From NCBI GenBank assembly GCA_965232465.1, contig OZ246977.1, forward strand, positions 1,348,649 to 1,412,648: 64,000 nt of DNA. The letters run 5' to 3'. The position numbers and the translations under genes were made by a program. Shown piece after piece: positions 36,564 to 64,000 of the stretch (position 1 is its first letter; each line of letters begins with the position of its first letter). The DNA is from Alphaproteobacteria bacterium. GTDB taxonomy: Bacteria; Pseudomonadota; Alphaproteobacteria; JAQWUY01. The notes beneath the pieces are model-generated. The model was not told the DNA's origin, ran no database searches, and was given only the letters and a program-made list of their open reading frames with translations.

Positions 36564-36593
36564 TTGAAAAAAAAAAAAAATCCTCTGTATACT
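36564..36593 (+). promoter_or_regulatory. Putative sigma-70-type promoter of the adhesin gene with an A14 homopolymer in the spacer
   Basis: TTGAAA (36564-36569), an 18-bp spacer made of 11 A's plus tcctctg, then TATACT (36588-36593). The A-run spans 36567-36580. Confidence 0.4.
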
Positions 36594-36662
36594 TATATTG
36601 TGGTGCCTGTTTGGGCGGGTGCCGAATTAAACTGTAATATTAAGATATTGAGGATGAAACAC

Positions 36663-39600
36663 ATGAAAAAATCTTTATGGGCAACGGCTAGTGTTATTGT
36701 GCTGGCATATACAACACCTGTATTCACCGATGACACGGACAAAGTGGTCAATGCCACGGGGAATATGTTTATGGATAGCATAAACAGAACAGGGTTTTTT
36801 GAATGGATAAGCGGCGGGGTCGGCTATACAGATAAAACCCTAAATTGGGATATTACCGCTTTTAGCAACCTGTCGGAAACAAAAGACACGGTTACATATT
36901 TGCAAACTTCTTATAATCGTCAAAAGTCAGTGAATCGATTAAACTTGGGGTTGGGGTATCGGAAGCGTATTGATACAACTGCTACCCCATTAATTGTTGG
37001 GGTCAATGCGTTTTTTGATAGCAAGGACGGGACAAAGAATATACTTGCTTTTAAGGCATCGGACAATTTCCAACGGTTTAGTGTGGGGGCGGAACTGAAA
37101 ACCGCACGGTTTGACATGGCGGCAAACCTATATCGTCGCATTGGCAATACCATTATCGACGATAAGAAAGTATTACAAGGCTGGGATATCACCGCTAAGG
37201 GCAATATCCCCAATTATGAACAGGTGTCTGTGGGGGTGGGGACCTATAGATTCGATGGGGTTGAGGATACAGTTGTTAGGGGCAATAAATTGATTGCCGA
37301 ATTTACCCCCAATGCGGTGGTAACAGTGCGGGGCACATATGACAAACCCAATGGCGAATCGGCACAGACCGATATATCGGTCGATTTTAAATTGGCATTC
37401 GACAAAAGTATACAAGACCAATTAAAATCCGCCCCTGTATCCGGTACAGATGCCGTATGGCACAAACGCTATGACAAGGTCGAACGGCACTATGATATTA
37501 AAACAGCGGAGGCACAGTCCACCCCCACATTAGGCACCGCTATCAGCAGTGCAGATTTGGCAACAAATAACATCAGTTCTGGCGATGGGACAACAGAACA
37601 ATCTGCATACGCCTTACAAAACAGCCAAAACTATGAGATACTAAACTTTGCTGGCACAATCGATAGTACTGATACTATTGAGGTCACTGTTGCAAAAGTG
37701 AGTGGCGATGGGGTGAAAGGCACGGACTTTCAGTTATACGCAAGCGATGGGACAACTGTTATTGCATTAGCGGATGTAACCGCAGATAGCAAGTTCGAAG
37801 ATAAAGCGGGGGGCAGAGAAGCCACCTTACAATTTACTTTTAGTGCGGATGGATTTAAAGACCGGGTGGTATTCGTTAAAACCAACAGCACTTTCACCGG
37901 TACTTTAACAATGGCAGATCTTGTTCTCCCCTATGCGTCTGGGACTGTAACGGTTAGCACCGCCGATATATTGGGTAAATTAACTGTATCCGGCAGCCAA
38001 ACACAAAAATCCGATTGGACAATTAAGAGCCTAACAGACACAGATAGTCATGCGAATCTTACGGTGAATGGCAAGACTCTGACTGTATCCGGGACAATCG
38101 GGTCCCCTACCACTGTAACCGCTGTATTCGAACATCCTGAGTATGCGGATCAGACCAAAACCTTCGAACTGTCCACAGGTGCCGGTACATTGGGGGGAAC
38201 GCCTACGGGGTTATCGGGTAAATGGGGCAAAACCTTTGCTGTGGATTATAAACTAAAAACTTCTGATACGGTGGGGGATGTAACAGTATCGTTTGATACA
38301 GGTGCCGATTTCAGCTTTAAGATTTTACCCCGTACTGATGGCAGTAAGGGAGGTAAGACCGCCACCACCGCAGGTATTATTGACACATCAAAAACAGCGA
38401 TTAACGCCAGTACTGGGGCAATTAATGGGGCAGCACTGACCAAATCGGGAACCTTGTTAGTGGAAATAGTCCGTGCCGCCAAAGGCGGATTGCCAGAGCT
38501 AACAGTATATGAAAATATTACGGTGAATAAACAAGTACTGGGTACAGATGTAACCACTATCCCGACCATATCGTTAAACAGTGGCGACAATAAGTGGAAA
38601 ACAGGGAATAGCAAATTTGACCTAAAATATACCAACCTGCCCGGCGGTCTGGCGGCGAATGCGTTTTCGTGGGCGGTTGCCAAAAAAACAGGGGCGGCAC
38701 CCAGTGGTACGGTCCGAATCGATAATGATGGTAAAATCAGTGGAGCAACCTCCGCTGGTACAGTGGTTATCACCTTAACCGCCAAAGGGGATAAATACAG
38801 TGGTAGTTTAACCTTAGCGGACTTTGCCATTGCCAAGCAAACAACGACAGATACGCTAACTATGGCGGATCTTGTCATATCCTATTCAGATGGGGATGGA
38901 AATAAAGTGGTAAGCACCGCAGAGATACTGGGGCAATTGTCCGTATCCGGGGGGCAAACACAAAAATCCCAATGGACACTGGTAAGCGTTGCCGACACGG
39001 ATAACAATGGCGATCTTGCTGTAACGGGTGGTGGCAAAACCCTAACCATATCCGATGAGATTAAAACCAAAACAACGGTTACCGCCACATTGTCGCATCC
39101 TGCGTATGAAAATAAGACGGCGACATTTGAATTGTCGACGGAGCCATCGAAGATAAGTACAACGGCACCCAGTGGGTCAGGTAAGTGGGGTAAATCGTAT
39201 ACTACGAATTATAATTTAAGACGTACGGTGGGGAGTGTAACATTTACTAATGCAGATTACACCTTCTCTATTGTGCCAACGGGCGATGATGGCAGTGGTA
39301 AGACACCCACCACCTCAGGTATTGTTGCCAGTGGGCAAAATGCTATAAGTAACCCCAGAACCGGGGCGATTGATGCCAGCAAATTAACCAAATCGGGTAC
39401 CTTATTGATAAAAATTGTCCGTGCGGCAAAAGGTGCTGGTGCCGCCCGAGTAGATGCGGTAACTGAATACCAAAACTTTACGGTGAGCAAACAGGACAGC
39501 ACAGACCACACCGGCTTTACTGTGTCCGCTGGGGCTATTGCATGGGCAACGGCAAGTACAGCGGTTACATATACCCTAACGAATGGTCCTGCGGGTATTG

Positions 39601-41924
39601 GCACCGCCACATACGCCTTGACAGCATCGGGGACAACGGCGGGTACGACCACAGGAGCTAGTGCTATCACCGTAGCGTCGAGCGATGGTAAGATTGGCAA
39701 AACCACTAAGAGTGGGGTGGTAAAAGTCAAGGTTACCTATGCCGCCAACGACAAATATGAAACGATGACCCGGGATGTGGATGTAACCATCAATAAGCAA
39801 GCGGGCACAGGGGCATTAACTATGGGGAACCTTGTGATACCGTATGGGGGGTCTGGGGATACAAAAGTAAGCACCGCCACCATAACAGGGAAATTGGGTG
39901 TACCCAGTGCCGGTGGTTTAGGGGCAAAATCGGATTGGACCTTAAAAAGCCTAGCGGATACGGATAGTAATTCGAATCTTACTGAAACGGATAGTGGCAA
40001 GACTTTGACCATATCCGGAGCAATCACCACCAGTACAACGGTTACCGCCACCTTCGAAAGTGATAAATACACGGATAAGTCCGCCACCTTTGAACTATCG
40101 ACTGGTGCCGGGGCAATGAGCACCGGCGATACCCGGACGGGACTATCCGGTAAATGGGGTATAGGGTTTAGCACAGCGGCGGATTATAAATTAAAACTGT
40201 CTGATAGTGTGGGCGATACGAGCGTAACCTTTACAAAAGGTGCCACCTCAACGCCGGGCGATTATACCTTCTCTATCGTTACGGGGAATGTGCCAAGTGA
40301 TGCACCGTCGGGGGCAAAAGCGACCACCACCAGTATCCTTGACACATCGAAAACGGCGATTAACGCCAACACTGGGGCTATTAATGCGGCGGCACTGGTC
40401 AAATCGGGCGACCTGTTGGTAAAAATCGTCCGCAAAGCCAAAAGCGGATTGCCCGCATTAACAGATTATGAAAATATTACCGTAACCAAACAGGATAGCA
40501 GCGACCACACCGGATTTACTGTATCGGCTGGGGCGATTACATGGAACGCCAATAGCCAAACGGTTTCGTATACAGAAAATGCCAGCAAACCTGCGGGTAT
40601 TGGCACCGCCACATATGCCTTAATAGATACAGGTACAACCGCCGGTACTGTAGCGGGCGGTAAAGGCACTATCGAAGTAACTTTGAGCAATGGTAAAATT
40701 GCAAAAACTGTCCGTAGTGGGGTGGTAAAAGTTAGGATTACCTATGCAGCCAACGATAAATACGCACAAATGACCCGAGATGTGGATGTACCCATCAATA
40801 AACAAACGGCAGCAGGGACGCTTAGTATGGCAAATCTTGTTGTACCCTATACATCCGGCAATAAAACAGTAAGCACCGCCGATATACTGGGGCAAATGAC
40901 TGCTCCAACAGGAACACAAAAAGCCGATTGGACCCTAAAAAGCCTAGCAGATACAGATAGTAATGGAAACCTTGCCATTGATGTGGGTGGAAAGAGTATA
41001 ACCATATCGGGGACAATACCCGCAGGGACAACAGTTACCGCTGTATTTGAAAGTGTCAAATATAATGATAAAACCGGTATAACCTTTGAACTATCCACAA
41101 GCAAAGGGACAATGAGTTCTGGCACCCGTACGGGATTATCGGGTAAATGGGGTACAGGCTTTACTAGTTCTACGAATGTGGATTATAAGTTAAAACTTTC
41201 TGATACAGTTGGGGATACAACAGTAACCTTTACAAAAGGTACAACAACGAATGCCGGCGATTACACCTTTACTATTTTACCCACCAGTGCTGGCAGTAAA
41301 GGGGGTAAAGACGCTACCACCTCAGGTATCGCATTAACCGGGGCAATTAACGCTAATACAGGGGCTATTGATGGGACAAAACTGACAAAATCAGGGAAAT
41401 TGTTAGTAAAAATTGTCCGTAAAGCCAAAGGGGGATTATCCGAAATCACCGATTATGAAAATATTATTGTGACGAAACAAGTACTAACACCAGCGGTTGC
41501 TTCTTCTGTAAAATCAGTCCAAGCTCCTGGAGCACTTCATACCATGACGCAAGCGGGTACGGCAAGTGATCCCTTTGCAACAGCATCACGGCAACTATAT
41601 CCGATCAGCAAATTAATATCTGTACCCAGTGGATTAGGCACACCAACTGTTACAGTAACTTGGACTGAATCGGGCAATTTGCAAACACAAGGATTAGGTG
41701 TTAGTGTCATTAACGACAGACTAGGAGCCCCAGATTTTAATATAATGAACAGCAATAAAGGGACAACAATTCCTAACGCATTACAAAGAAATATTTTTGA
41801 TTTTTTCAATAGGGACGCAACAAATACTGTACAACTTATCTTTACCTTTACCAACCCTGATACAGATAAGTACGATCTAACACAATCGGTTATTAATGTA
41901 TATATAAAAGGAAATGCCGGATAA
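36663..41924 (+). CDS. Giant surface protein, putative inverse autotransporter (intimin/invasin-type beta-barrel plus bacterial Ig-like repeats)
   Basis: Signal peptide MKKSLWATASVIVLAYTTPVFT. The N-terminal ~250 aa align by eye with the intimin beta-barrel. About 1400 aa of Big_2-like Ig modules follow in four ~1-kb tandem units, then a unique ~150-aa C-terminus. ATG 36663 has a GAGGA ribosome-binding site 10 nt upstream; ATG 36654 is an alternative. The track start at 36564 is a TTG running through the poly(A) and is rejected. Confidence 0.65.
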   Translation: MKKSLWATASVIVLAYTTPVFTDDTDKVVNATGNMFMDSINRTGFFEWISGGVGYTDKTLNWDITAFSNLSETKDTVTYLQTSYNRQKSVNRLNLGLGYRKRIDTTATPLIVGVNAFFDSKDGTKNILAFKASDNFQRFSVGAELKTARFDMAANLYRRIGNTIIDDKKVLQGWDITAKGNIPNYEQVSVGVGTYRFDGVEDTVVRGNKLIAEFTPNAVVTVRGTYDKPNGESAQTDISVDFKLAFDKSIQDQLKSAPVSGTDAVWHKRYDKVERHYDIKTAEAQSTPTLGTAISSADLATNNISSGDGTTEQSAYALQNSQNYEILNFAGTIDSTDTIEVTVAKVSGDGVKGTDFQLYASDGTTVIALADVTADSKFEDKAGGREATLQFTFSADGFKDRVVFVKTNSTFTGTLTMADLVLPYASGTVTVSTADILGKLTVSGSQTQKSDWTIKSLTDTDSHANLTVNGKTLTVSGTIGSPTTVTAVFEHPEYADQTKTFELSTGAGTLGGTPTGLSGKWGKTFAVDYKLKTSDTVGDVTVSFDTGADFSFKILPRTDGSKGGKTATTAGIIDTSKTAINASTGAINGAALTKSGTLLVEIVRAAKGGLPELTVYENITVNKQVLGTDVTTIPTISLNSGDNKWKTGNSKFDLKYTNLPGGLAANAFSWAVAKKTGAAPSGTVRIDNDGKISGATSAGTVVITLTAKGDKYSGSLTLADFAIAKQTTTDTLTMADLVISYSDGDGNKVVSTAEILGQLSVSGGQTQKSQWTLVSVADTDNNGDLAVTGGGKTLTISDEIKTKTTVTATLSHPAYENKTATFELSTEPSKISTTAPSGSGKWGKSYTTNYNLRRTVGSVTFTNADYTFSIVPTGDDGSGKTPTTSGIVASGQNAISNPRTGAIDASKLTKSGTLLIKIVRAAKGAGAARVDAVTEYQNFTVSKQDSTDHTGFTVSAGAIAWATASTAVTYTLTNGPAGIGTATYALTASGTTAGTTTGASAITVASSDGKIGKTTKSGVVKVKVTYAANDKYETMTRDVDVTINKQAGTGALTMGNLVIPYGGSGDTKVSTATITGKLGVPSAGGLGAKSDWTLKSLADTDSNSNLTETDSGKTLTISGAITTSTTVTATFESDKYTDKSATFELSTGAGAMSTGDTRTGLSGKWGIGFSTAADYKLKLSDSVGDTSVTFTKGATSTPGDYTFSIVTGNVPSDAPSGAKATTTSILDTSKTAINANTGAINAAALVKSGDLLVKIVRKAKSGLPALTDYENITVTKQDSSDHTGFTVSAGAITWNANSQTVSYTENASKPAGIGTATYALIDTGTTAGTVAGGKGTIEVTLSNGKIAKTVRSGVVKVRITYAANDKYAQMTRDVDVPINKQTAAGTLSMANLVVPYTSGNKTVSTADILGQMTAPTGTQKADWTLKSLADTDSNGNLAIDVGGKSITISGTIPAGTTVTAVFESVKYNDKTGITFELSTSKGTMSSGTRTGLSGKWGTGFTSSTNVDYKLKLSDTVGDTTVTFTKGTTTNAGDYTFTILPTSAGSKGGKDATTSGIALTGAINANTGAIDGTKLTKSGKLLVKIVRKAKGGLSEITDYENIIVTKQVLTPAVASSVKSVQAPGALHTMTQAGTASDPFATASRQLYPISKLISVPSGLGTPTVTVTWTESGNLQTQGLGVSVINDRLGAPDFNIMNSNKGTTIPNALQRNIFDFFNRDATNTVQLIFTFTNPDTDKYDLTQSVINVYIKGNAG
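37899..41480 (+). repeat. Four diverged ~0.95-1.0-kb tandem coding repeats inside the adhesin gene
   Basis: Unit starts near 37899, 38851, 39808 and 40811; each begins T/ALTMADLV-type and ends ENITV(T/N)KQ. Units 2 and 3 carry an extra ~100-aa Ig-like sub-module. Confidence 0.8.
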
Positions 41925-52205: not shown

Positions 52206-52472
52206 ATATATATCCTCCTTATATTATATCTTTAATCCACGGGAAATAATCCGATGATTAAGCATGATAATAATCAGCGGAATAACCGTTATCATAAGCC
52301 CTGCGGTCATAATCAATGTATAATCTGTAAGCCCTTCATAAGGGTCTTCTCTTAGGGAATTTAACCCAACCAATGCTGGCTGTATTTTTGGATTGTTGGA
52401 GGCAATTAACGGTCAAAAGTACTGATTCCATCCCCCCGTAAATAAAATTAAAAATAATCCTAGATAGTGTAG

Positions 52473-52847
52473 TCACGAGATTTTTGTCCATAATGCGATG
52501 CATCTGATTTGTACAGCGGCGAGAAATGAAGTGGTGTTTTTAGCGTATCTTGTTGCAATACCACGCCATCGTTTTAGGTGTAGAAACGCATTTTCCACTA
52601 AGCACCGCCAATGATACAGGTGTTCATCATACTCCCTTTGTTCTTTGCGATTCTTTCTTGGGGGAATAACAGGCTCTATACCTTGTTGTTTTGCTAGGTG
52701 TATGATATGCTCACTATCATATCCCTTATCTGCCAACAAATACTCTGCACTGATGCCTTCAATCAATCTGCCTGCTTGTGTGCAATCAGCCGTGGTACCG
52801 TTCGTAATAAGTATTCTGACCGGCATACCATGCGCATCCACGGCCAA
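52473..52847 (-). CDS. IS5-family transposase, C-terminal DDE ORF (orfB), reached by a -1 shift near AAAAGGGGG
   Basis: The frame upstream of the annotated start reads ...GLNTKIHLAVDAHGMPVRILITNGTTAD, the conserved DDE_Tnp_1 core. It overlaps orfA by 85 nt. Confidence 0.75.
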   Translation of the reverse strand: MAVDAHGMPVRILITNGTTADCTQAGRLIEGISAEYLLADKGYDSEHIIHLAKQQGIEPVIPPRKNRKEQREYDEHLYHWRCLVENAFLHLKRWRGIATRYAKNTTSFLAAVQIRCIALWTKIS

Positions 52848-53236
52848 ATGTATCTTCGTGTTGAGCCCCCTTTTGTGCGGCTCATATCTTGATTACCGCC
52901 TAGTGCACCAGATGCATGAGGATGCACCTTACAATGACTAGCGTCTATTATTAACCATTCATAATCCGGATCTGTAACTAAAATTTCCAACAACTTTTCC
53001 CATATCCCCTTATCACGCCAGCGGATAAAACGACGGTGCGTGTTACTCCAATCCCCTAAATCAGGCGGTAAGTCACGCCAAGGGGCACCTGTGCGTATAA
53101 TCCAAAATACCGCATTGATAAATAAACGGTTGTCTTTCGCTATACCACCCCATGTGCCTTTACGACCCGGTAAGTGTGGCTCTAATAATTCCCATGTTTT
53201 ATCACAAATATCATGGCGTCTGTGTGCTAATGTCAT
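52763..53236 (-). CDS. IS5-family transposase, N-terminal ORF (orfA)
   Basis: MTLAHRRHDICDKTWELLEPHLPGRKGTWGGIAKDNRLFINAVFWIIRTGAPWRDLP is the canonical IS427-group N-terminus. Confidence 0.8.
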   Translation of the reverse strand: MTLAHRRHDICDKTWELLEPHLPGRKGTWGGIAKDNRLFINAVFWIIRTGAPWRDLPPDLGDWSNTHRRFIRWRDKGIWEKLLEILVTDPDYEWLIIDASHCKVHPHASGALGGNQDMSRTKGGSTRRYIWPWMRMVCRSEYLLRTVPRLIAHKQAD

Positions 53237-53987
53237 CTCAATGTCCTTTATAATAGTGTTAATATCAAAAATACTATAACATAGTTCTTACCTCATGACT
53301 ACACTATTTAGTATAGTAGGCTTAGATTGAGGAATTAAAATATCCACTAAGAAGCGAAAGGGACCTGCTCCATCCATTTGTGCAGCCTTTACCATAGAGG
53401 GTGGAATCGTACGGAAGTACTGTACAAATACCAAAGTACCACCGGCTTCAATCATTAACGGCAAACTCATCCCCCCATAGGAGTTTAAAATATTAAACCG
53501 CATATCCAATGAATAGCCAAATATAAATGTCCACAAACCCCCTAAGTTTGCAATGGTATTTATGGGTAAAAAGATATTGGATGCCACTTGATACATAACA
53601 ATGGTTAGGGTATCCCCTGGTACCAAAATAATAACTATTACACACCCATACATCAGTTTGCGGATAAAATTGCCAAAAAACACGATGGTATAGGCAGCCA
53701 ATATGGCAAATAATATGCCCCCGCCACCAATCAATACACCTAAAATGGCACTGTTTAAAATTTGTCGTGGAATAAGTGTTTCTGTGCTAACCGTATATAG
53801 GTTTTGCCATAAATGTGTACCAAGTACCAACTGTAATTCCCCACCATTTTGTACAAAATCTGCATATGAAGTACTTGCAGTGGTTAAAATAATATACAAT
53901 GGCGTAAGTATATATATGCACCCCAATATCAAAACTGCATACGCAGTAATGTTTATGGAGCGGGTGTTTTCTATCATATTCATATCA

Positions 53988-54939
53988 TTATCTTTCATAT
54001 TTTATATGCTTACCAAGCAACAGAAATTGTAACCCTGCGATAGTCAATCCGATGATTAAAATAATAATGGTTTGTGCCGCCGCCCCCGATAAATCGAGTC
54101 CCACAAACGCATCCTGATATAATTTGTATATAATCAATGTGGTTTCCCCACGGGGATTACCTTCGGTCATAATGTTAATTAACGCAAATGATGATGTTAA
54201 ACCTTGGTTAATTTCCAATAACATGGTGATAAATAATTGTGGCGTAATAAAGGGCAACTGCATATCCCATAACCGTCGCCATGCCCCCGCACCATCCATA
54301 GCCGCCCACCGGAGTTACACTACCAATTGCAGCAGATAACCGTCGCCATGCCCCCGCACCATCCATAGCCGCCGCCTTATGCAAAGTATTTGGAATAGCC
54401 TGTAAACCGGCGAGTATAACCACAAAATTAAAGGGAATATTGCCCCATATACTGGCAATATAAATCATAATCCATGCGTGTAAAGTGTTGTCCCGTGGAC
54501 TCCATAGTTCGGGGTACTTATCGGCAAATCCCGCTAAAAACCCCATTTGTGGGTCAAGTATAAATACAAACACCACACCAGCACTAGCCGCTGCAAACGC
54601 CTTTGGCCAAATAAATACACTGCCAATATGACGGGTGCCACGCACACCTCTGTCCACTGCTAAAGCCAATATTAAAGATATGGAAATTGCCAAAAACGAA
54701 GAGATCATCATGTATATGATTGTCCGTATAACAACTGTGATAAATTCCCCATCGCTCAGCAATTCTATGAAATTATCAAACCCCACATATTCTGTACTGC
54801 CCCCAAATGGGGATTCCAAATGAAACGCCCAATAAAACGATACCAATATGGGTGTAAAGAAAAATAACATTACTAATATAAGGCAGGGGGAGGCAAATAG
54901 CATAGCATGTAAAGTATTATGAAAGTATCCTTGTCGCAT
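53988..54939 (-). pseudogene. ugpA: ugpA-like ABC permease pseudogene (frameshifted by a 67-bp insertion/duplication)
   Basis: The 36-bp sequence aaccgtcgccatgcccccgcaccatccatagccgcc occurs at 54271-54306 and again at 54338-54373, separated by 31 bp. MDGAGAWRRL is therefore encoded twice and the frame breaks. Both flanking frames are MalF/UgpA-like. Confidence 0.75.
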
Positions 54940-56317: not shown

Positions 56318-56782
56318 AACTATTCTCCTTATAATATAAATTTCTCTAAATGCAATGTGTATAAAAAATGTGATGCATATACCAACATACACATTAATTA
56401 TGAAAAAAATTATATTGTAAAAAATAGTACAAATCAATATAAGCAAATTGCGTCAGTATATATACCCACACAAAAATATTTTTTATATCATATTGAAAAA
56501 TAACAATATTTATAATATAATGCGATTGTTAAAAAAATCTAAAAAACACAATCCCCAAAAAATATGTGAATATTTACCCACATTATAAGAATAATTACCC
56601 ATAATAGATTCTAAATCTTAAAATACTTATGCATACAACCTGAAAAACATACTGCAAAACTAACCCATATGGCAGCATTTTTTATTCTTAGCCATCTGAA
56701 ATCTCTGATTAGCTGATAAACAAAGAATGCTGGGTGACCACACCCCAATAATTGTCCCACTTTTAGGTTAATGCTTTTTGTC

Positions 56783-56814
56783 ATATTGTCAATGATAAAT
56801 ATCATTGACAATAT
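56783..56814. repeat. 32-bp perfect palindrome ATATTGTCAATGATA-aa-TATCATTGACAATAT, two terminal-repeat-like arms of the MITE family placed back to back
   Basis: 15-bp arms around a 2-nt centre. The arm matches the MITE terminal repeat ATATAGTCAAT at 10 of 11 positions. Confidence 0.5.
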
Positions 56815-56829
56815 TTTGTGTTTTGGCAC

Positions 56830-56920
56830 TTGTGGGTTGTATCCTAATGCACTGTGTGAGTGGATGTGGTTGTATTCGTATTGCCACTGTCCTATGATTA
56901 CTTGTGCTTCTGATAGTCTC
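56830..56920 (-). pseudogene. Remnant of the C-terminus of an rve-integrase-type (IS3/IS481-like) transposase
   Basis: [32 protein letters not shown] matches the conserved C-terminal box (W..YNH.RPHSALGY.TP) of DDE-integrase transposases. No other transposase sequence lies nearby. Confidence 0.45.
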
Positions 56921-56923
56921 ATT

Positions 56924-57100
56924 TTGTCCGCCGGTATTATTGACCCAGCAAAAATCGTTCGCTGTGCCATTCAAGATGCCGCATCCATTGTTGGTTTGTT
57001 AATCACCACCGAAACCATGGTGGCTAATGAGCCTGTGGATCCTGCTGCAGCACCTGCTATGCCAACGGGTGGAACAGGCGGTATGCCAAGCATGATGTAA
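56924..57100 (+). pseudogene. groEL: groEL 3'-terminal fragment (last ~59 codons only)
   Basis: [58 protein letters not shown]-stop is the Cpn60 C-terminus, including the Gly/Met-rich tail. The upstream part of the gene is absent. Confidence 0.7.
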
Positions 57101-57333
57101 AATTTTTTGGTTTTAACCTTCAACATGTTCTTGAAAAACTCTCTTTAAAAACTCCTTTATTTAGGAAATTTCTTATTTTGTCTTAACTTTAAGATGAAAT
57201 TTTTTTGTTGCTTTTTTATTTTTTATAATGGTATAACTACTTGGATATTAACTACAGTAGTGAATCACATTTTGAATCTTAATGCAACACTTTTATGGGT
57301 TCACTGCCTAAATTACAATGAGGGAGAATTTAA

Positions 57334-58620
57334 ATGTCTGATAAGTATCAAGAGGATTATGCTGTTTCTGTTATTCCACGGGATAAAAGGCGGTCTTTAT
57401 TAAGTCTAACATTAGTATGGACCGCAACTGTTATCACTGTATCTGGGTTGGTTGTCGGATCATTTTTGGTGGCGGGAATGTCCTTGCAAGGGGCATTTAC
57501 TGCGGTTATACTTGGTAACATTTTACTAACTGTTATTGGTGGTATCATCGGTACCATGGGGGCCCGTCAAGGGGTTGGCTCTGCCATGCTTGCCCGTCAT
57601 ACATTTGGACGGCAAGGGGCAAAAATCATTGCTATTTGTGTTGCGATTGTTATGCTTGGATGGTTTTCTTTCCAAATCGATGTATTTGGTAAAACCTTAA
57701 ATGCTATGTTCCCCAATGGTGGATTTATCTTTAGTCCACAGGTGGCTGCTATTTGGGGCGGTGTGTTAATGACCTTAACCGCTTATATGGGATACCGTGG
57801 GTTATCCATGTTAAGTACAGTTGCCGTACCTGTTTTGGTGGTTCTGGCACTGGTTGGGGTGATGACTGTTATTGGCAAAGATGGTGGCTTTGGGGTTATT
57901 GCTTCTTATGTACCTGAGGGGACTATGGCAATGGCTGTGGCGATTGACATTGTTGCTGGTGCGGTGATTGCTGGTGCGTGTGTACAAGCGGACATTATGC
58001 GGTATGCAAAATCCGATAAGGATGTGTGGATTTCCACCGCTATTGGCTTTATGATTGCCAATGCGTTTATGATGATGGTCGGTTATATGCTGTCTGTTTC
58101 TAGTGGTACTTGGGACTTACCAGCGGCGATGGTTGGCTTAGGCTTGGGTATTCCGGCATTGTTGGTGTTGGTATTGGCACAATGGACAACCAACGACAGC
58201 AACTTGTACTGGTCGTCTTTGAGTTTTGCCAACATTGTCAATGTGGAAAAACGCAAAATTGTACTAGTATGTGGTGCATTGGGAATTTTGGCAACATTAT
58301 TGGGTATTGCTGATAACTTTGTATCCTTCTTATTGGTATTGGGTAAAACCATTCCACCGATTGCAGGTATCTTTGTTGCCGATTATTTCTTTGTTTCCAA
58401 AGGACAGTACATATATGGTAAAGGCACCAAGTACAGCCAATGGCAAGTGTCCGCACTTATTGCATGGGTAGTGGCGATTGTCGTTGGATTTAAAGTCACT
58501 TGGGGTGTTAGTGTAATTAACGCCCTTGTCGTATCGTTTGTAGTGTATTTCGTCTTAGCCAAAGTGTTAAACCAGAAAATATCTGTGGGCGAATACGAAG
58601 AACAAGACAACGGGTTTTAA
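57334..58620 (+). CDS. NCS1-family nucleobase/hydantoin-type permease (CodB/PucI-like)
   Basis: 12-TM protein; the N-terminal region (SLLSLTLVWTATVITVSGLVVG, GARQGVGSAMLARHTFGRQGAK) is typical of cytosine/allantoin/hydantoin permeases. GAGGGAG ribosome-binding site. Confidence 0.75.
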   Translation: MSDKYQEDYAVSVIPRDKRRSLLSLTLVWTATVITVSGLVVGSFLVAGMSLQGAFTAVILGNILLTVIGGIIGTMGARQGVGSAMLARHTFGRQGAKIIAICVAIVMLGWFSFQIDVFGKTLNAMFPNGGFIFSPQVAAIWGGVLMTLTAYMGYRGLSMLSTVAVPVLVVLALVGVMTVIGKDGGFGVIASYVPEGTMAMAVAIDIVAGAVIAGACVQADIMRYAKSDKDVWISTAIGFMIANAFMMMVGYMLSVSSGTWDLPAAMVGLGLGIPALLVLVLAQWTTNDSNLYWSSLSFANIVNVEKRKIVLVCGALGILATLLGIADNFVSFLLVLGKTIPPIAGIFVADYFFVSKGQYIYGKGTKYSQWQVSALIAWVVAIVVGFKVTWGVSVINALVVSFVVYFVLAKVLNQKISVGEYEEQDNGF

Positions 58621-58644
58621 TTCCATATTGTAAGGTACAAACAC

Positions 58645-59724
58645 ATGGGCATGCAACACTTAACCTTGGCGGATATAGAAGCCCTACGGGTTGGCACATG
58701 GGTCTTGGGTACGGGGGGCGGTGGCAACCCGTATCACATGGCTTTGGGGGCAACATTATTAGCCAAACAAACAGCCAAAAATGCACACTTGATACAAGTG
58801 GACGATTTAGCAGAAGATGCCTTGGTGGCAATGGTGGCGTTCATTGGGGCACCTCTCGTGTGTTTGGAAAGGTTACACGATTATGAACAATCGTTAAGAC
58901 CTATTCGTATCTTAGAACAAAAAATGGGCAAAAAAGTCGACGCTTTATTGCCTTTGGAAATTGGCGGTGCCAATGGTATGTATGCATTCCCCATCAGTGT
59001 GGCAACAGGGATTCCTGTTGTCGATGCGGACTGTATGGGGCGGGCGTACCCAGAATTACAAATGATAACCCCCGCCATAAATAATGAACCTTGCCCCCCT
59101 GCGGTTATGAGTGATATTCGCAATTCCGATGTGTATTTTCCCAATTTTGAATCATGGGATTGGGGCGAACGCTTAATGCGGGTTACCTGTGCGGAAATGG
59201 GGGCAGTGGCGTGTATGGGGTTTGCACTAACTGGTGAACAAGTAAAGCAAAGTTCCATTCATGGTACCATTACCCAAGCCAAAAATATTGGCAATGCGTT
59301 AATTTCAGCAAACAAAAATAACCAATGCCCGATTCAAGCATTACAGGACACCACCCCCAGTAAATTTTTATTTGAAGGTAAAGTGGTGGATGTAAACCGC
59401 CGTATTGAAAGGGGATTTTTAAAAGGAAAATTAACCATTAAAGGTACGGGAAATTACACAGAGGATGAACTGTTAATCCATTTCCAAAATGAATTTTCTG
59501 TTGCCCTGTTAAATAATGAAGTATTGGTGACAACCCCCGATTTAATCTGTGTACTCGACACGGTAAGCGGTGACGGTGTGGGAACAGATGCGGTGCGATA
59601 TGGACAACGGTTGTCTGTGCTTGCATTACCCACAGACCCGATTTATTTATCAAAAGGTGGATTAAAAGCCGTATCGCCAAGGGCGTTCGGTTTTGATATG
59701 GATTATAAATCTGTATTTGTGTAA
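58645..59724 (+). CDS. DUF917-family protein
   Basis: 359 aa; GTGGGGNPY near the N-terminus and overall length fit DUF917 (PF06032), a family commonly adjacent to hydantoinase/oxoprolinase-family genes. Confidence 0.6.
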   Translation: MGMQHLTLADIEALRVGTWVLGTGGGGNPYHMALGATLLAKQTAKNAHLIQVDDLAEDALVAMVAFIGAPLVCLERLHDYEQSLRPIRILEQKMGKKVDALLPLEIGGANGMYAFPISVATGIPVVDADCMGRAYPELQMITPAINNEPCPPAVMSDIRNSDVYFPNFESWDWGERLMRVTCAEMGAVACMGFALTGEQVKQSSIHGTITQAKNIGNALISANKNNQCPIQALQDTTPSKFLFEGKVVDVNRRIERGFLKGKLTIKGTGNYTEDELLIHFQNEFSVALLNNEVLVTTPDLICVLDTVSGDGVGTDAVRYGQRLSVLALPTDPIYLSKGGLKAVSPRAFGFDMDYKSVFV

Positions 59725-59748
59725 AATTTATGTAAGGAAAGACAAATT

Positions 59749-61287
59749 ATGAAAACTATCGGCATAGATGTAGGCGGTACAAATACGGATGCAGTTTTGG
59801 TGGAAAATGGCAAGGTATTACAGTCGTGTAAAACTTTGACCACAGAAGATGTTATTACTGGTATCAAAAACGCCCTAACCCATATATTGGAATCCGCAGG
59901 TGAACAGGCAAAAGGGCTTGGGGCGGTTATGATTGGCACCACCCATTTTGTCAATGCGGTTATCCAACGCAAATGTATTTCAAAGGTTGCCACCTTGCGA
60001 ATTTCCGCCCCCGCATCGACAAAACTGTATCCCACTTGCGATTGGTCCGAAGATTTGGCACAGTGTGCAAATGGGGGACATTATATGATTGAGGGGGGCT
60101 TTGAATTTGATGGACGGGAAATTGTGCCGTTAAATGAAGATATGATTCATTATGCCATTCGACAGATTAAAGCCGATGGGATAAACTGTATCGCCATATC
60201 GTCCGCATTCGCCACCATTCGCAACGACCATGAAAAACGAGCGTTGAAAATCGTACAACAACACATGCCCAATGTGCTTGTAACCCTGTCCAGTGATATT
60301 GGCAAAGTGGGGCTGTTAGAACGGGAAAATGTAACAATTTTAAATTCTGCCTTATTACCACTATCCCACAAAACAATTGATTCCTTTGAACAGGCGTTGC
60401 AAAGCATTAACCTAGATGTACCTTTATATATTACGCAAAATGACGGTACTATTACCACTGCGGATGTCGCCCGCAATCGTCCCGTATTCAGTTTCGCATC
60501 GGGACCGACCAACAGTATGCGGGGGGCGGTGTTCTTGTCCGGGGTTGACGAAGCGGTGGTTTGCGATGTGGGGGGAACGACCTCTGATTTGGGATATGTA
60601 AAAAATGGCTATCCGAGGGAAGCAAACAATGTAGTGAAAGTGGGCGGTGTACGGACGCTGTTTCGTATGCCTGATGTGTTCAGTATCGCCCTTGGCGGTG
60701 GCACCATGGTACACAAAGACAGTGCCGTTGGACCTTTAAGTGTGGGGTATAGATTATTTGAAGACTCCATCAGTAATGGCGGTACTGTGTTAACCACCAC
60801 CGATATTATGGTGGCAACCGATGTATTAGATATTGGCGATAAAGTACAATTAAACCACTTGTCAAACGATTATATCCAATCTGTACTTAACAATATAAAA
60901 GGTATGGTAACCGATGCGGTAGATCAAATAAAATCTGACAACCGTGCCGTACCATTATTAGCCGTTGGCGGTGGGGCATGCCTTATTCCCGATAAAATCG
61001 AAGGCATATCCCAAGTCATTAAAGTGGAAAACGCCGGCGTCGCCAATGCGGTCGGGGCGGCAATTGCCCAAATCAGCGGATATGTGGATTGTGTCATCAG
61101 CGATATGAACCGTGAAGATGCTCTGGCAAAAGCCACCGCATACGCCAAACAAGATGCGGTACAAAAAGGGGCAGATGAACGCACCTTAGAGGTCATAGAA
61201 ATCGAAGACATTCCCATGAATTATATGCCAGGAAACAACCTACAAATAAAGATAAAAGTGGTGGGCGATATTAAAGGTTTTGTATAA
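59749..61287 (+). CDS. Hydantoinase/oxoprolinase-family protein (HyuA-like, A-subunit type only)
   Basis: N-terminal IGIDVGGTNTDAVL (Hydant_A_N) and an ATPase-fold middle region (VVCDVGGTTSD). No HyuB partner is present. Confidence 0.75.
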   Translation: MKTIGIDVGGTNTDAVLVENGKVLQSCKTLTTEDVITGIKNALTHILESAGEQAKGLGAVMIGTTHFVNAVIQRKCISKVATLRISAPASTKLYPTCDWSEDLAQCANGGHYMIEGGFEFDGREIVPLNEDMIHYAIRQIKADGINCIAISSAFATIRNDHEKRALKIVQQHMPNVLVTLSSDIGKVGLLERENVTILNSALLPLSHKTIDSFEQALQSINLDVPLYITQNDGTITTADVARNRPVFSFASGPTNSMRGAVFLSGVDEAVVCDVGGTTSDLGYVKNGYPREANNVVKVGGVRTLFRMPDVFSIALGGGTMVHKDSAVGPLSVGYRLFEDSISNGGTVLTTTDIMVATDVLDIGDKVQLNHLSNDYIQSVLNNIKGMVTDAVDQIKSDNRAVPLLAVGGGACLIPDKIEGISQVIKVENAGVANAVGAAIAQISGYVDCVISDMNREDALAKATAYAKQDAVQKGADERTLEVIEIEDIPMNYMPGNNLQIKIKVVGDIKGFV

Positions 61288-61495
61288 AAAGCTATAAACG
61301 CTTAAAACCAAAAAAAATCGAATGTAATCATTTTATACGAATTTAACTATAATTTTTTTTGGCTGTAATTTTTTTAAAAAAAGCCTTGCATGGCGATTGA
61401 ATGGGAAGTGAATTTTACTTTATCATTTATTGGATATGTAGTATATATTATATATTAGGTGTCATAGGCTATCAAATATATAAAAGAATGTGTTA

Positions 61496-62093
61496 TATGA
61501 AATTGGATATAAACCCACATTTTGAACAGGCTTTGCGGATCATGGAAAATACCTGTCAGCATCTGTTTATTACGGGCAAGGCGGGGACGGGGAAGTCTAC
61601 TTTGTTGGAATGTTTTTGTGCCAATACCCATAAACAAGTGGTGGTGTTAGCACCCATGGGCGTATCAGCACTGCATGTTAAGGGACAGACCATTCACAAG
61701 TTTTTTAACTTTTATATTGATGTGACCGTTGAACAAATTGAATATGGAGAAATCGTTTCAAGGAATCCCGAAATATATAAAAGTATTGATACCATCATTA
61801 TCGACGAAGTATCCATGGTGCGGGCGGATTTATTGGATTGTATCGATGCGTTTATGTCCGCATATGGTCCGCAACAAGACACACCTTTTGGCGGGGTGCA
61901 AATGGTGTTTATTGGCGACTTGTACCAACTGCCCCCGGTGGGCAAAGGGGAAAGACAGGTATTTCGGGACTATTATACATCACCCTATTTTTTCAGTGCG
62001 GATGTTATGAACGATATATCACTGGATATTATCGAACTGGAAAAGGTCTATCGACAAAAAGATGCGGACTTTATCAAAATAAACAGCAAATAA
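61496..62093 (+). pseudogene. Truncated Pif1/RecD-like DNA helicase (N-terminal ~200 aa only)
   Basis: Walker A FITGKAGTGKST, Walker B IIIDEVSM and the Pif1 signature KVYRQKD.DFI are followed directly by a stop. The C-terminal helicase domain is missing and recO follows. Confidence 0.6.
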
Positions 62094-62955: not shown

Positions 62956-64000
62956 TTATCCACTGTATGTATCGTCATTGCGTAATACATGAATTTTTAC
63001 AGTGGTTTTTTTGCCTGTTTTTTGTAATATTGCCTTACGCATGGCACTTCGCACCTTTTCAACCACTTTGTTGTCCTGCATAATGTCTTTATTGGACAAT
63101 TTTTCCACCGCTTGTATTACCAAATCAATCAAAGCGGTATGGTCCGCTTCATCAGGCATATGCAATCCTTCGATTTGAATTTGCGGTTCACACAATAAAC
63201 TGCCATATGTATCCAATGCAATGGACACCATAGCCAACCCAGTAAACGCCATTTTTTTACGTTGCCTGATGGCACTGTTATCAGACGCAGTTATTTGCGT
63301 ACCATCCAATACCCATTCCCCTGTATGCACTTTGCCAACACACAATGCCCCCTCAGCCGAAAGCGACATTAAATCCCCATTTTTTAATACAAATGCCTGT
63401 TCGACCCCACATTCCATTGCCAGTTGTGCATGGCGATATAAGTGTATGTTTTCCCCGTGCATAGGAATGGCATATTTGGGCTTTAAGTGGGTATATAATT
63501 CGGCAATTTCCACCCCTGACCCATGTCCCGACGCATGTACAAACGCATCGGAAGTATTGATAATTTCCACCCCATTTTCCACAAATAACGATTGAATATA
63601 CCCAACCGATACTTCATTGCCGGGGATACAACGGGCGGAAAATATAACCGTATCACCCTTGCCCAATTTTACATCACGGTGTTCGTTGCGGGCAACACGG
63701 GCAAGCCCCGCCCGCCATTCGCCCTGTGACCCTGTACAAATATACAACAGTTTTGATTTACAAATATCTCTGACTGCATCCGCTTCATAGACTTGCGGAA
63801 TATCCTGAAAATATCCAGATTTTTTGGCACAATCCAACATGCGCCATAAGCTTTTGCCAACAAATACTACCTGACGATTACATTTTCGTGCCGCTAACAA
63901 AAAACTTTCCAACCGTGCCAAATTCGATGCAAAACAAGTTACCGCCACACCCCCCGCCAGCCCTGCCAGCACCTCCATAATAGAATCCCGTACATCCCCT
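62956..64000 (-). CDS. rnj: Ribonuclease J (beta-CASP metallo-beta-lactamase RNase), 5'-partial at the window edge
   Basis: Beta-CASP and C-terminal domain motifs (SGHGSGVEIAELYTHLKPKYAIPMHGE). The frame stays open to the end of the window, so the N-terminal MBL domain lies outside. Confidence 0.75.
   Translation of the reverse strand, partial: GDVRDSIMEVLAGLAGGVAVTCFASNLARLESFLLAARKCNRQVVFVGKSLWRMLDCAKKSGYFQDIPQVYEADAVRDICKSKLLYICTGSQGEWRAGLARVARNEHRDVKLGKGDTVIFSARCIPGNEVSVGYIQSLFVENGVEIINTSDAFVHASGHGSGVEIAELYTHLKPKYAIPMHGENIHLYRHAQLAMECGVEQAFVLKNGDLMSLSAEGALCVGKVHTGEWVLDGTQITASDNSAIRQRKKMAFTGLAMVSIALDTYGSLLCEPQIQIEGLHMPDEADHTALIDLVIQAVEKLSNKDIMQDNKVVEKVRSAMRKAILQKTGKKTTVKIHVLRNDDTYSG

Follow-up and report, generated by a model that had tools for sequence, protein, structure and literature searches.

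An NCS1 permease–DUF917–HyuA-like gene module in an alphaproteobacterial genome: a recurring operon with a possible role in ATP-dependent cyclic-amide hydrolysis

We analyzed a 64,000-nucleotide stretch of an alphaproteobacterial contig (GenBank OZ246977.1, positions 1,348,649 to 1,412,648; hereafter the window, with coordinates counted from its first letter) in which three co-oriented, tightly spaced genes lie between 57334 and 61287. An earlier note, made from the letters alone, had described them as a permease, a DUF917 protein and a hydantoinase/oxoprolinase-like protein with good ribosome-binding sites, and this description holds. The open reading frames (ORFs), all on the forward strand, encode an NCS1-family permease (57334-58620, 428 aa), a DUF917 or S-Me-THD-like protein (58645-59724, 359 aa) and a short HyuA-like ATPase of the acetate and sugar kinase/Hsc70/actin (ASKHA) type (59749-61287, 512 aa), with spacers of 24 nt each between permease and DUF917 and between DUF917 and HyuA-like. 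A Shine-Dalgarno-like GAGGGAG, read from the sequence, stands at 57320-57326 on the same strand, 7 nt upstream of the NCS1 start codon, and the DUF917 and HyuA-like starts are preceded by the purine-rich ribosome-binding sites AAGG and AAGGAAAG. In alignments to homologues of the same size, 95-100% of the length of each window protein was covered, and the Pfam families that had been named for the two enzyme genes (PF06032, PF05378 and PF01968) were all matched in the ORFs claimed. With the comparisons given below, the three genes are confirmed as a genuine recurring module.

The DUF917 protein matches both domains of its family in Pfam well above the threshold of 27 (PF06032, E 2.4e-48, 164.6 bits; PF20906, E 6.7e-58, 195.6 bits). 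The glycine-rich motif GTGGGGNPY, already pointed out in the earlier note, occupies aa 22-30 (58708-58734), and is joined by LEIGGANG (aa 104-111), DADCMGRAYPELQM (aa 127-140; 59023-59064), FQNEF (aa 280-284) and TPDLIC (aa 297-302). In a 48-sequence alignment that includes the window protein, all 67 invariant columns are kept. Its AlphaFold2 model has a predicted local distance difference test (pLDDT) score of 91.7, and a Foldseek search of the PDB with this model returned a single relative, the structural-genomics entry 2o3i (E 5.5e-22, template modelling (TM) score 0.78). In the model, the conserved GxGGGG loop leads into a helix and the EIGG and DADxMGR motifs sit at strand ends; across the family Glu, Asp and Arg residues are conserved and no His or Cys is invariant. 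Such an arrangement, as modelled, would be consistent with an anion- or phosphate-binding, Mg-type hydrolytic site. The implication that DUF917 is a wholly uncharacterized family did not survive, as NCBIfam holds equivalogs for thiohydantoin and S-methyl-thiohydantoin desulfurases, and Pfam now names the former DUF917 S-Me-THD-like. The window protein is ruled out as a member of either desulfurase group, since it scores 93.4 bits against a cut-off of 440 and 100.9 bits against a cut-off of 450.

The third ORF encodes, as had been proposed, a 512-aa protein with the HyuA-type ATPase fold. It matches PF05378 (E 1.1e-35, 123.4 bits) and PF01968 (E 5.7e-30, 105 bits), the latter limited to profile positions 1-173 of 291, and its three ASKHA motifs are intact: phosphate-1 DVGGTNTD (aa 7-14; 59767-59790), phosphate-2 DVGGTTSD (aa 273-280; 60565-60588) and the adenosine motif VGGGA (aa 406-410; 60964-60978). 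PDB sequence matches include the N-methylhydantoinase 7hk5 (E 4e-26) and 6yra (E 3.8e-24), the latter deposited under the name 5-oxoprolinase in an entry titled caprolactamase. By sequence and by Foldseek, the homology extends over ~360 residues and takes in the nucleotide-binding parts of N-methylhydantoinase, caprolactamase/5-oxoprolinase, and the acetophenone and acetone carboxylases. Compared with the canonical alpha subunits of ~690 aa, the window protein is ~180 aa shorter and is without the C-terminal domain, and it reaches 116 bits where the CapA equivalog requires 1000. The canonical partner of such a subunit is HyuB, which the earlier note had described as lacking at this locus; a tblastn search of the 64-kb window indeed retrieved no HyuB-like sequence (best E = 4.4). 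Reading DUF917 itself as a divergent HyuB was considered and rejected, with hhalign giving a probability of 0.2% against the HyuB profile and Foldseek returning 2o3i only.

To what extent the two enzyme genes belong together can be read from two independent sets of loci. The genome sample, a scan with a DUF917 alignment across one genome per species, comprised 80 loci, mostly from Alphaproteobacteria, with DUF917 proteins 42-63% identical to that of the window. A HyuA-like gene of 510-520 aa begins within ~150 nt downstream of DUF917 in 79 of these 80 loci, and the exception lies at a contig end. The metagenome sample came from a scan seeded with a 4-sequence alignment of Firmicutes-type DUF917 (loci L095-L174), and a well-flanked subset of 31 loci had at least 4 kb upstream and at least 2 kb downstream; in this separate DUF917 clade, the HyuA-like gene is present in 31/31. 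Neighbor counts were made by tblastn, and ORF-based clustering was set aside for high-GC loci on account of their long antisense ORFs.

The same two proteins also occur as one. An exhaustive HMMER search yielded 3,328 DUF917 relatives at 50% clustering, and among the top 150 representatives 21 have lengths of at least 800 aa. Every long protein scanned (18/18) carries HyuA_N, Hydantoinase_A, S-Me-THD_N and S-Me-THD_C in one chain, and one additional fused protein has the domain order reversed. These fusions are found in Ancoracysta, Willaertia, the fungus Hyaloraphidium, the starfish Acanthaster planci, Pelomyxa and Anaeramoeba, and also in some bacteria. Aligned end to end, the window HyuA-like protein has 42% identity with the N-terminal half of the Ancoracysta fusion; for the window DUF917 and the C-terminal half the figure is 37%. 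An AlphaFold2 model of the Ancoracysta fusion reaches a predicted TM (pTM) score of 0.87 despite a 45-aa disordered linker, which suggests that the modelled halves adopt a defined arrangement. With the conserved gene order and the natural fusions, co-occurrence of DUF917 and the HyuA-like protein goes well beyond chance, as the earlier note had supposed, and the pairing is close to obligate. The window genes have the arrangement by which the conserved pair is recognized, a short (~510-540 aa) HyuA-like gene adjoining or fused with DUF917; they are a clear member of this widespread pair and one ordinary example of it. As a separate observation, several loci (L005, L043, L055-L066, L074, L081 and many of L095-L174) carry two to four tandem DUF917 paralogues for a single HyuA-like gene, an arrangement that may let several specificity or hydrolytic subunits draw on one ATPase; only one DUF917 is present in the window.

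The permease had been called a cytosine/hydantoin-type NCS1 transporter. The family part of that label is sound, with a PF02133 match at residues 20-401 (E 2.9e-24, 86.1 bits against a gathering threshold of 23.5), but the binding site is not of the cytosine type. Identification as the cytosine permease CodB was rejected: the protein scores 267.7 bits against NCBIfam NF008241, under the cut-off of 326, even though its PDB matches run from CodB (7qoa, E 5e-47) to Mhp1 (E 1e-7). In CodB, the side chains contacting cytosine are Gln105, Trp108 and Phe204, plus Phe33, and mutation of Gln105 abolishes cytosine transport, while in Mhp1, Gln121 and Asn318 are the main hydrogen-bond partners of the hydantoin ring (PMC9379551). 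At the CodB positions, the window permease has Met107 for Gln105, Thr35 for Phe33 and Val211 for Phe204, and only Trp108 is kept (Trp110). The Na2-site residues Thr285 and Thr286 are retained. In a profile alignment, Trp110, Gln114 and Asn287 correspond to Mhp1 Trp117, Gln121 and Asn318, an alignment in which overall similarity is weak (E 1e-7); Gln114 lies one helical turn past the conserved Trp110.

For the pocket comparison we used 25 DUF917-linked NCS1 genes from metagenomes, whose products are ~30-35% identical to the window permease. Trp110 and Asn287 are conserved in 25/25, Gln114 in 22/25 (the other 3 have Glu), and Gln at the CodB-105 position occurs in 0/25, and likewise in none of the 28 members of the window permease's clade that were examined. 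Judging from these aligned residues, the permease falls in a subfamily related to CodB whose substrate pocket differs, and we infer that its ligand would present an imide- or cis-amide-type hydrogen-bonding face and be something other than cytosine. A side observation concerns the sodium site: among the 25 linked permeases of the metagenome loci (e.g., L097, L105, L115, L121), the positions of CodB Thr278 and Thr279 hold Lys in 18 and Ile in 17, which suggests that coupling in those proteins may be sodium-independent; the window permease keeps Thr-Thr.

A dedicated importer for the pair, another element of the earlier proposal, is borne out in many unrelated lineages. An NCS1 gene is present in 18 of the 31 well-flanked metagenome loci, and the order NCS1-DUF917-HyuA-like is found in Ammoniphilus, Bacillus and locus L092, with a gene for a PucR-family regulator nearby in Ammoniphilus and Bacillus. 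Consecutive locus tags or accessions for permease, DUF917 and hydantoinase are also on record for Clostridioides difficile R20291 (CDR20291_1615-1617) and Lacticaseibacillus rhamnosus (PMC12915319, PMC7513527). The nearest relatives of the window permease, at 40-49% identity, are all from Firmicutes; in five of eight such contexts DUF917 adjoins the permease or lies two genes away. A metagenome scan with the NCS1 protein alone gave no matches. In three of the eight contexts, the partners are a NicX-like protein and a short SBP_bac_3-like protein, and the closest relatives of the window permease in the Clostridiales loci L085, L086, L088, L093 and L094 stand with the NicX-like protein (PF26233) and an SBP_bac_3-like protein of ~205 aa. 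Locus L094 carries DUF917 as well as these partners, which suggests two alternative or sequential enzyme sets for one imported compound. No specific NCBIfam names were found for the NicX-like, short SBP_bac_3, AroM and PucR neighbors.

The enzyme pair has a different affinity. The window enzymes are 50-70% identical to their counterparts at alphaproteobacterial loci versus 35-41% to those of the Firmicutes cassettes, and the nearest relative of the pair is in an uncultured alphaproteobacterial metagenome-assembled genome (OZ254962.1; DUF917 63% and HyuA-like 70% identical). Among the 80 alphaproteobacterial loci of the genome scan, an NCS1 gene is found in 0; a Dpp/Opp-type ATP-binding cassette (ABC) importer and a gene for an AroM racemase-like protein are each present in well over half, a LysR-type gene is usual, and the AroM gene directly follows the ATPase gene and is translationally coupled to the pair. 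None of these partners (AroM, the Dpp/Opp-type importer or LysR) is found in the window. By sequence affinity, then, the window operon is a mosaic, in which alphaproteobacterial-type enzymes are joined to a permease like those of identically arranged Firmicutes cassettes: none of the 80 closest enzyme loci has an NCS1 gene, and the permease, whose nearest relatives are all from Firmicutes, is 45% identical to the Firmicutes permeases compared.

The hydantoinase/oxoprolinase family divides the work between two subunits, A adding phosphate to bound 5-oxoproline and B hydrolyzing the phosphorylated intermediate (PMC6061476). By extension, the reading we favor, on which confidence and doubt are about evenly balanced, is that the permease supplies a two-component, ATP-dependent hydrolase of cyclic amides in which DUF917 replaces HyuB. 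The NCS1 permease, probably Na+-coupled, would import a small cyclic amide, recognizing a planar ring with cis-amide or imide groups through its Mhp1-like Trp/Gln/Asn arrangement. The HyuA-like protein would be the ATP-binding subunit and, if it works like 5-oxoprolinase, N-methylhydantoinase and caprolactamase, would place a phosphate on the substrate's lactim oxygen, whereupon DUF917 would bind and hydrolyze the phospho-lactim to phosphate and a ring-opened product. What we infer is that a complex forms here, that phosphorylation proceeds in this way, that DUF917 is the hydrolytic partner, and which kind of substrate is used. The DUF917 enzymes with NCBIfam names displace, going by those names, SH or SCH3 at C2 of a hydantoin ring; displacing a leaving group from an imidate-like carbon at C2 is analogous to phospho-lactim hydrolysis, and by such analogies ring opening of a cyclic amide is plausible.

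As to the substrate, we found no publication that establishes one, in agreement with the earlier note. The most likely candidate classes are cyclic dipeptides (2,5-diketopiperazines), slightly ahead of 5-substituted hydantoins, with other small lactams behind both. Hints come from the Dpp-type importers and AroM racemase-like genes of the alphaproteobacterial loci, and from nitroreductase-family genes, which are present in 15 of the 80 metagenome loci and as an adjacent pair beside the Bacillus cassette. As a candidate cyclodipeptide oxidase the Bacillus pair was not established, as the albonoursin synthase AlbA was matched only as one nitroreductase among many, at rank 10 (E 7.8e-16). A published analysis found an excess of DUF917, AroM and hydantoin-racemase genes near those homologues of cyclodipeptide oxidase that lack a cyclodipeptide synthase (bioRxiv 10.1101/2023.09.25.559410). 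No dedicated catabolic hydrolase for cyclic dipeptides or closely related rings turned up in the searches made. A further-reaching claim, possible but one we advance only tentatively, is that the pair forms a new class of ATP-dependent cyclic-amide hydrolase in which the non-homologous DUF917 would take the HyuB role, with diketopiperazines or related rings as natural substrates, conserved from bacteria to protists, fungi and echinoderms.

Several observations weigh against a permease-fed hydrolase of this kind. The closest relatives of the window enzymes use an ABC importer (NCS1 in 0/80), and a shared substrate between the clades is assumed. The pocket of the window permease is atypical, with Val211 where Mhp1 has Trp220, the position facing the 5-substituent, and where most relatives have Phe. 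The model of the Ancoracysta fusion does not establish that the Gly-rich loop of DUF917 would face the ATP site. Linkage of carbamoylase, dipeptidase or amidohydrolase genes to the pair was seen in at most 1/80 loci per query, a search of limited sensitivity, and this near-absence does not speak in favor of one product or another. The searchable literature yielded no biochemical data for any HyuA-like/DUF917 pair. The characterized DUF917 enzymes stand alone and are not known to depend on ATP, and a phosphorylated intermediate may be unneeded.

Other readings of the pair were weighed against the same observations. ATP might drive a non-hydrolytic reaction, whether carboxylation, the amination of a phospho-imidate or group exchange on it, or epimerization powered by ATP in concert with AroM-like racemases. 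The subunits of acetone and acetophenone carboxylase among the best structural matches of the ATPase, the AroM genes that are translationally coupled to the pair at well over half of the 80 alphaproteobacterial loci and the missing linkage of downstream hydrolases would all suit such chemistry; carboxylases, however, require a HyuB-type metal subunit that is absent here, AroM is absent from the window, and the sequence scores to the lactam hydrolases 7hk5 and 6yra are higher than those to the carboxylases. We consider this unlikely, if not far-fetched. A sequence of two enzymes, in which DUF917 alone acts as a desulfurase-like protein on a 2-thio- or S-methyl-thiohydantoin (e.g., a catabolite of ergothioneine) and the HyuA-like protein then processes the hydantoin, draws on the fact that thiohydantoin and S-methyl-thiohydantoin desulfurases are the sole named DUF917 equivalogs, and on the present Pfam name, S-Me-THD-like. 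It is nonetheless decidedly unlikely in our view: the window DUF917 falls far short of both cut-offs (100.9 and 93.4 bits against 450 and 440), many eukaryotes and some bacteria carry both proteins in one chain, a HyuA subunit without a HyuB-type partner would be unprecedented as a complete hydantoinase, and no ergothionase or thiourocanate hydratase was present among the ORFs scanned in the window (the nine largest and those of the flanks at 52-57 and 61-64 kb). Another possibility makes the HyuA-like protein an activase or chaperone that uses ATP in the service of DUF917, rather than a substrate kinase, comparable to the HgdC/BcrAD-type activators, GlmL/MutL or the diol-dehydratase reactivase; this would account for its weak Pfam matches to MutL (26.5 bits, just under the cut-off of 27) and BcrAD_BadFG and for the lower-ranked Foldseek matches to dehydratase activators and a reactivating factor. 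These matches trail those to HyuA proteins by several to many orders of magnitude and cover the generic ASKHA core only, and among the invariant residues of DUF917 there is no Cys or His to point to a redox cofactor in need of activation, so that such a role strikes us as quite improbable.

Two further readings would deny that the module is a working unit at all. That an ordinary cytosine or nucleobase salvage permease stands by chance beside two unrelated genes is suggested by CodB being its top match in both NCBIfam and the PDB. Its equivalog score remains below the cut-off (267.7 bits against 326), Gln105 is Met here, neither the 25 DUF917-linked permeases nor the 28 clade members have a Gln there, and the three-gene order is repeated in distant phyla with, in the window, spacers of just 24 nt; we regard chance association as very improbable. 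Equally hard to credit is a recently acquired, non-functional cassette whose disruptions are still to come. The flanks are indeed pseudogenized and carry insertion sequence (IS) elements, and the G+C content at third codon positions (GC3) of the module, 0.41-0.44, is slightly over the 0.35-0.37 of the housekeeping genes, which would fit a later acquisition, if weakly. Against this, the three ORFs are full-length, each with a ribosome-binding site, DUF917 keeps every invariant column and the ATPase keeps its ATP motifs.

The surroundings of the module had been described as mobile-element debris, and the debris is real, though local, spanning only ~6 kb of flanks. Farthest upstream is an IS5-family element of ~860 bp (52457-53314) with 23-nt terminal inverted repeats (87% complementary), in which overlapping ORFs (DUF4096 and DDE_Tnp_1) encode the two parts of a split transposase; the element adjoins the 3' end of a second ABC permease ORF, between that ORF and an intact ATPase gene. 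An ABC permease gene on the reverse strand is frameshifted by a 67-nt insertion at 54269-54373, made up of a 38-nt direct repeat with identical copies (54269-54306 and 54336-54373) and a 29-nt spacer. The insertion duplicates the peptide AAMDGAGAWRRL in the EAA loop of the permease and breaks the frame, and the identity of the two copies points to a recent origin. Next to the module on its upstream side are an rve_3 integrase/transposase remnant on the reverse strand (56611-56970) and, overlapping it, a 3'-end remnant of groEL on the forward strand that ends at 57100. Immediately downstream is a truncated gene for a PIF1/AAA_30-type helicase (61401-62093), of which only the N-terminal part (230 aa) is left. 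The remainder of the window carries housekeeping genes in intact form, among them mfd, valS, recG, ftsI, parE/gyrB and malic enzyme. The argument that everything around the three genes is decaying and that their intactness indicates selection is thus weak: as the decay is local and, judging by the perfect 38-nt repeat and the still recognizable terminal repeats of the IS element, apparently recent, and most of the window is intact, the intactness of the module is not remarkable by itself.

An AT-rich inverted repeat with 17-nt arms and a 33-nt loop (61302-61368, forward strand) begins 15 nt past the HyuA-like stop codon and may mark the end of the operon, a weak assignment given that the terminator scan made no call there; the promoter and terminator scans as a whole gave results at chance level. 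Elsewhere in the window, a 1786-aa ORF at 36564-41924 contains an inverse-autotransporter (intimin/invasin-type) beta-domain and has a GC content of 0.46 against a window mean of 0.405; it may encode an adhesin, which would hint at a host-associated lifestyle. An RNase J-like ORF on the reverse strand (62956-63978) starts at the beta-CASP domain, with no metallo-beta-lactamase N-terminal domain in the same frame ahead of it; possibly the gene is disrupted, or it runs on past the window edge in another frame.

The wider interest of the module lies with the pair. The current model of the superfamily joins an A-subunit kinase to a B-subunit hydrolase or carboxylase, and here B is consistently replaced by an unrelated protein, in a pair that has thousands of members, is fused in diverse eukaryotes and is repeatedly tied to NCS1 or Dpp-type importers. 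Once its substrate is identified, an annotation could be given to many genes now listed as "hydantoinase/oxoprolinase family" and "DUF917," including those of C. difficile and L. rhamnosus, and the result might show a cellular salvage route for cyclic dipeptides or similarly stable lactams. The one distinctive point of the window copy is its Firmicutes-like permease joined to alphaproteobacterial-like enzymes.

Among known systems, the module comes closest in enzyme composition to OplAB, HyuAB and CapAB (PDB 6yra, 7hk5), with which it shares a homologous ATPase subunit, intact ATP motifs and the setting of a two-gene enzyme beside a transporter. The eukaryotic HyuA-like::DUF917 fusions likewise parallel the HyuA-HyuB fusion of eukaryotic oxoprolinase. 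Unlike those systems, the module has DUF917 in place of HyuB, with no detectable homology between the two (hhalign 0.2%, no Foldseek match), and its ATPase is ~180 aa shorter, without the C-terminal domain, at 116 bits against 1000 for CapA. With the thiohydantoin and S-methyl-thiohydantoin desulfurases (NF058529, NF058532), the window DUF917 has in common the two-domain architecture and the fold, and those enzymes act on a hydantoin-type ring; it differs in scoring 93-101 bits against 440-450, in being paired or fused with an ATPase, and in having no ergothioneine-pathway genes seen nearby.

On the transport side, the module resembles the Mhp1-type hydantoin clusters in combining an NCS1 importer with putative ring-opening enzymes, in the aligned Trp/Gln/Asn contact positions and in the AroM racemase-like genes at related loci. 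In contrast to those clusters, the window permease is of the CodB branch and has Val211 for Trp220, and neither a metal-dependent cyclic amidohydrolase nor a carbamoylase was found at the window module. The CodBA operon offers the closest permease, with CodB Trp108, Asn280, the Arg216/Tyr285 pair and the Na2-site threonines all conserved, whereas Gln105, Phe33 and Phe204 are replaced in the window protein, which scores under the equivalog cut-off and is accompanied, where CodBA has a cytosine deaminase, by the HyuA-like/DUF917 pair.

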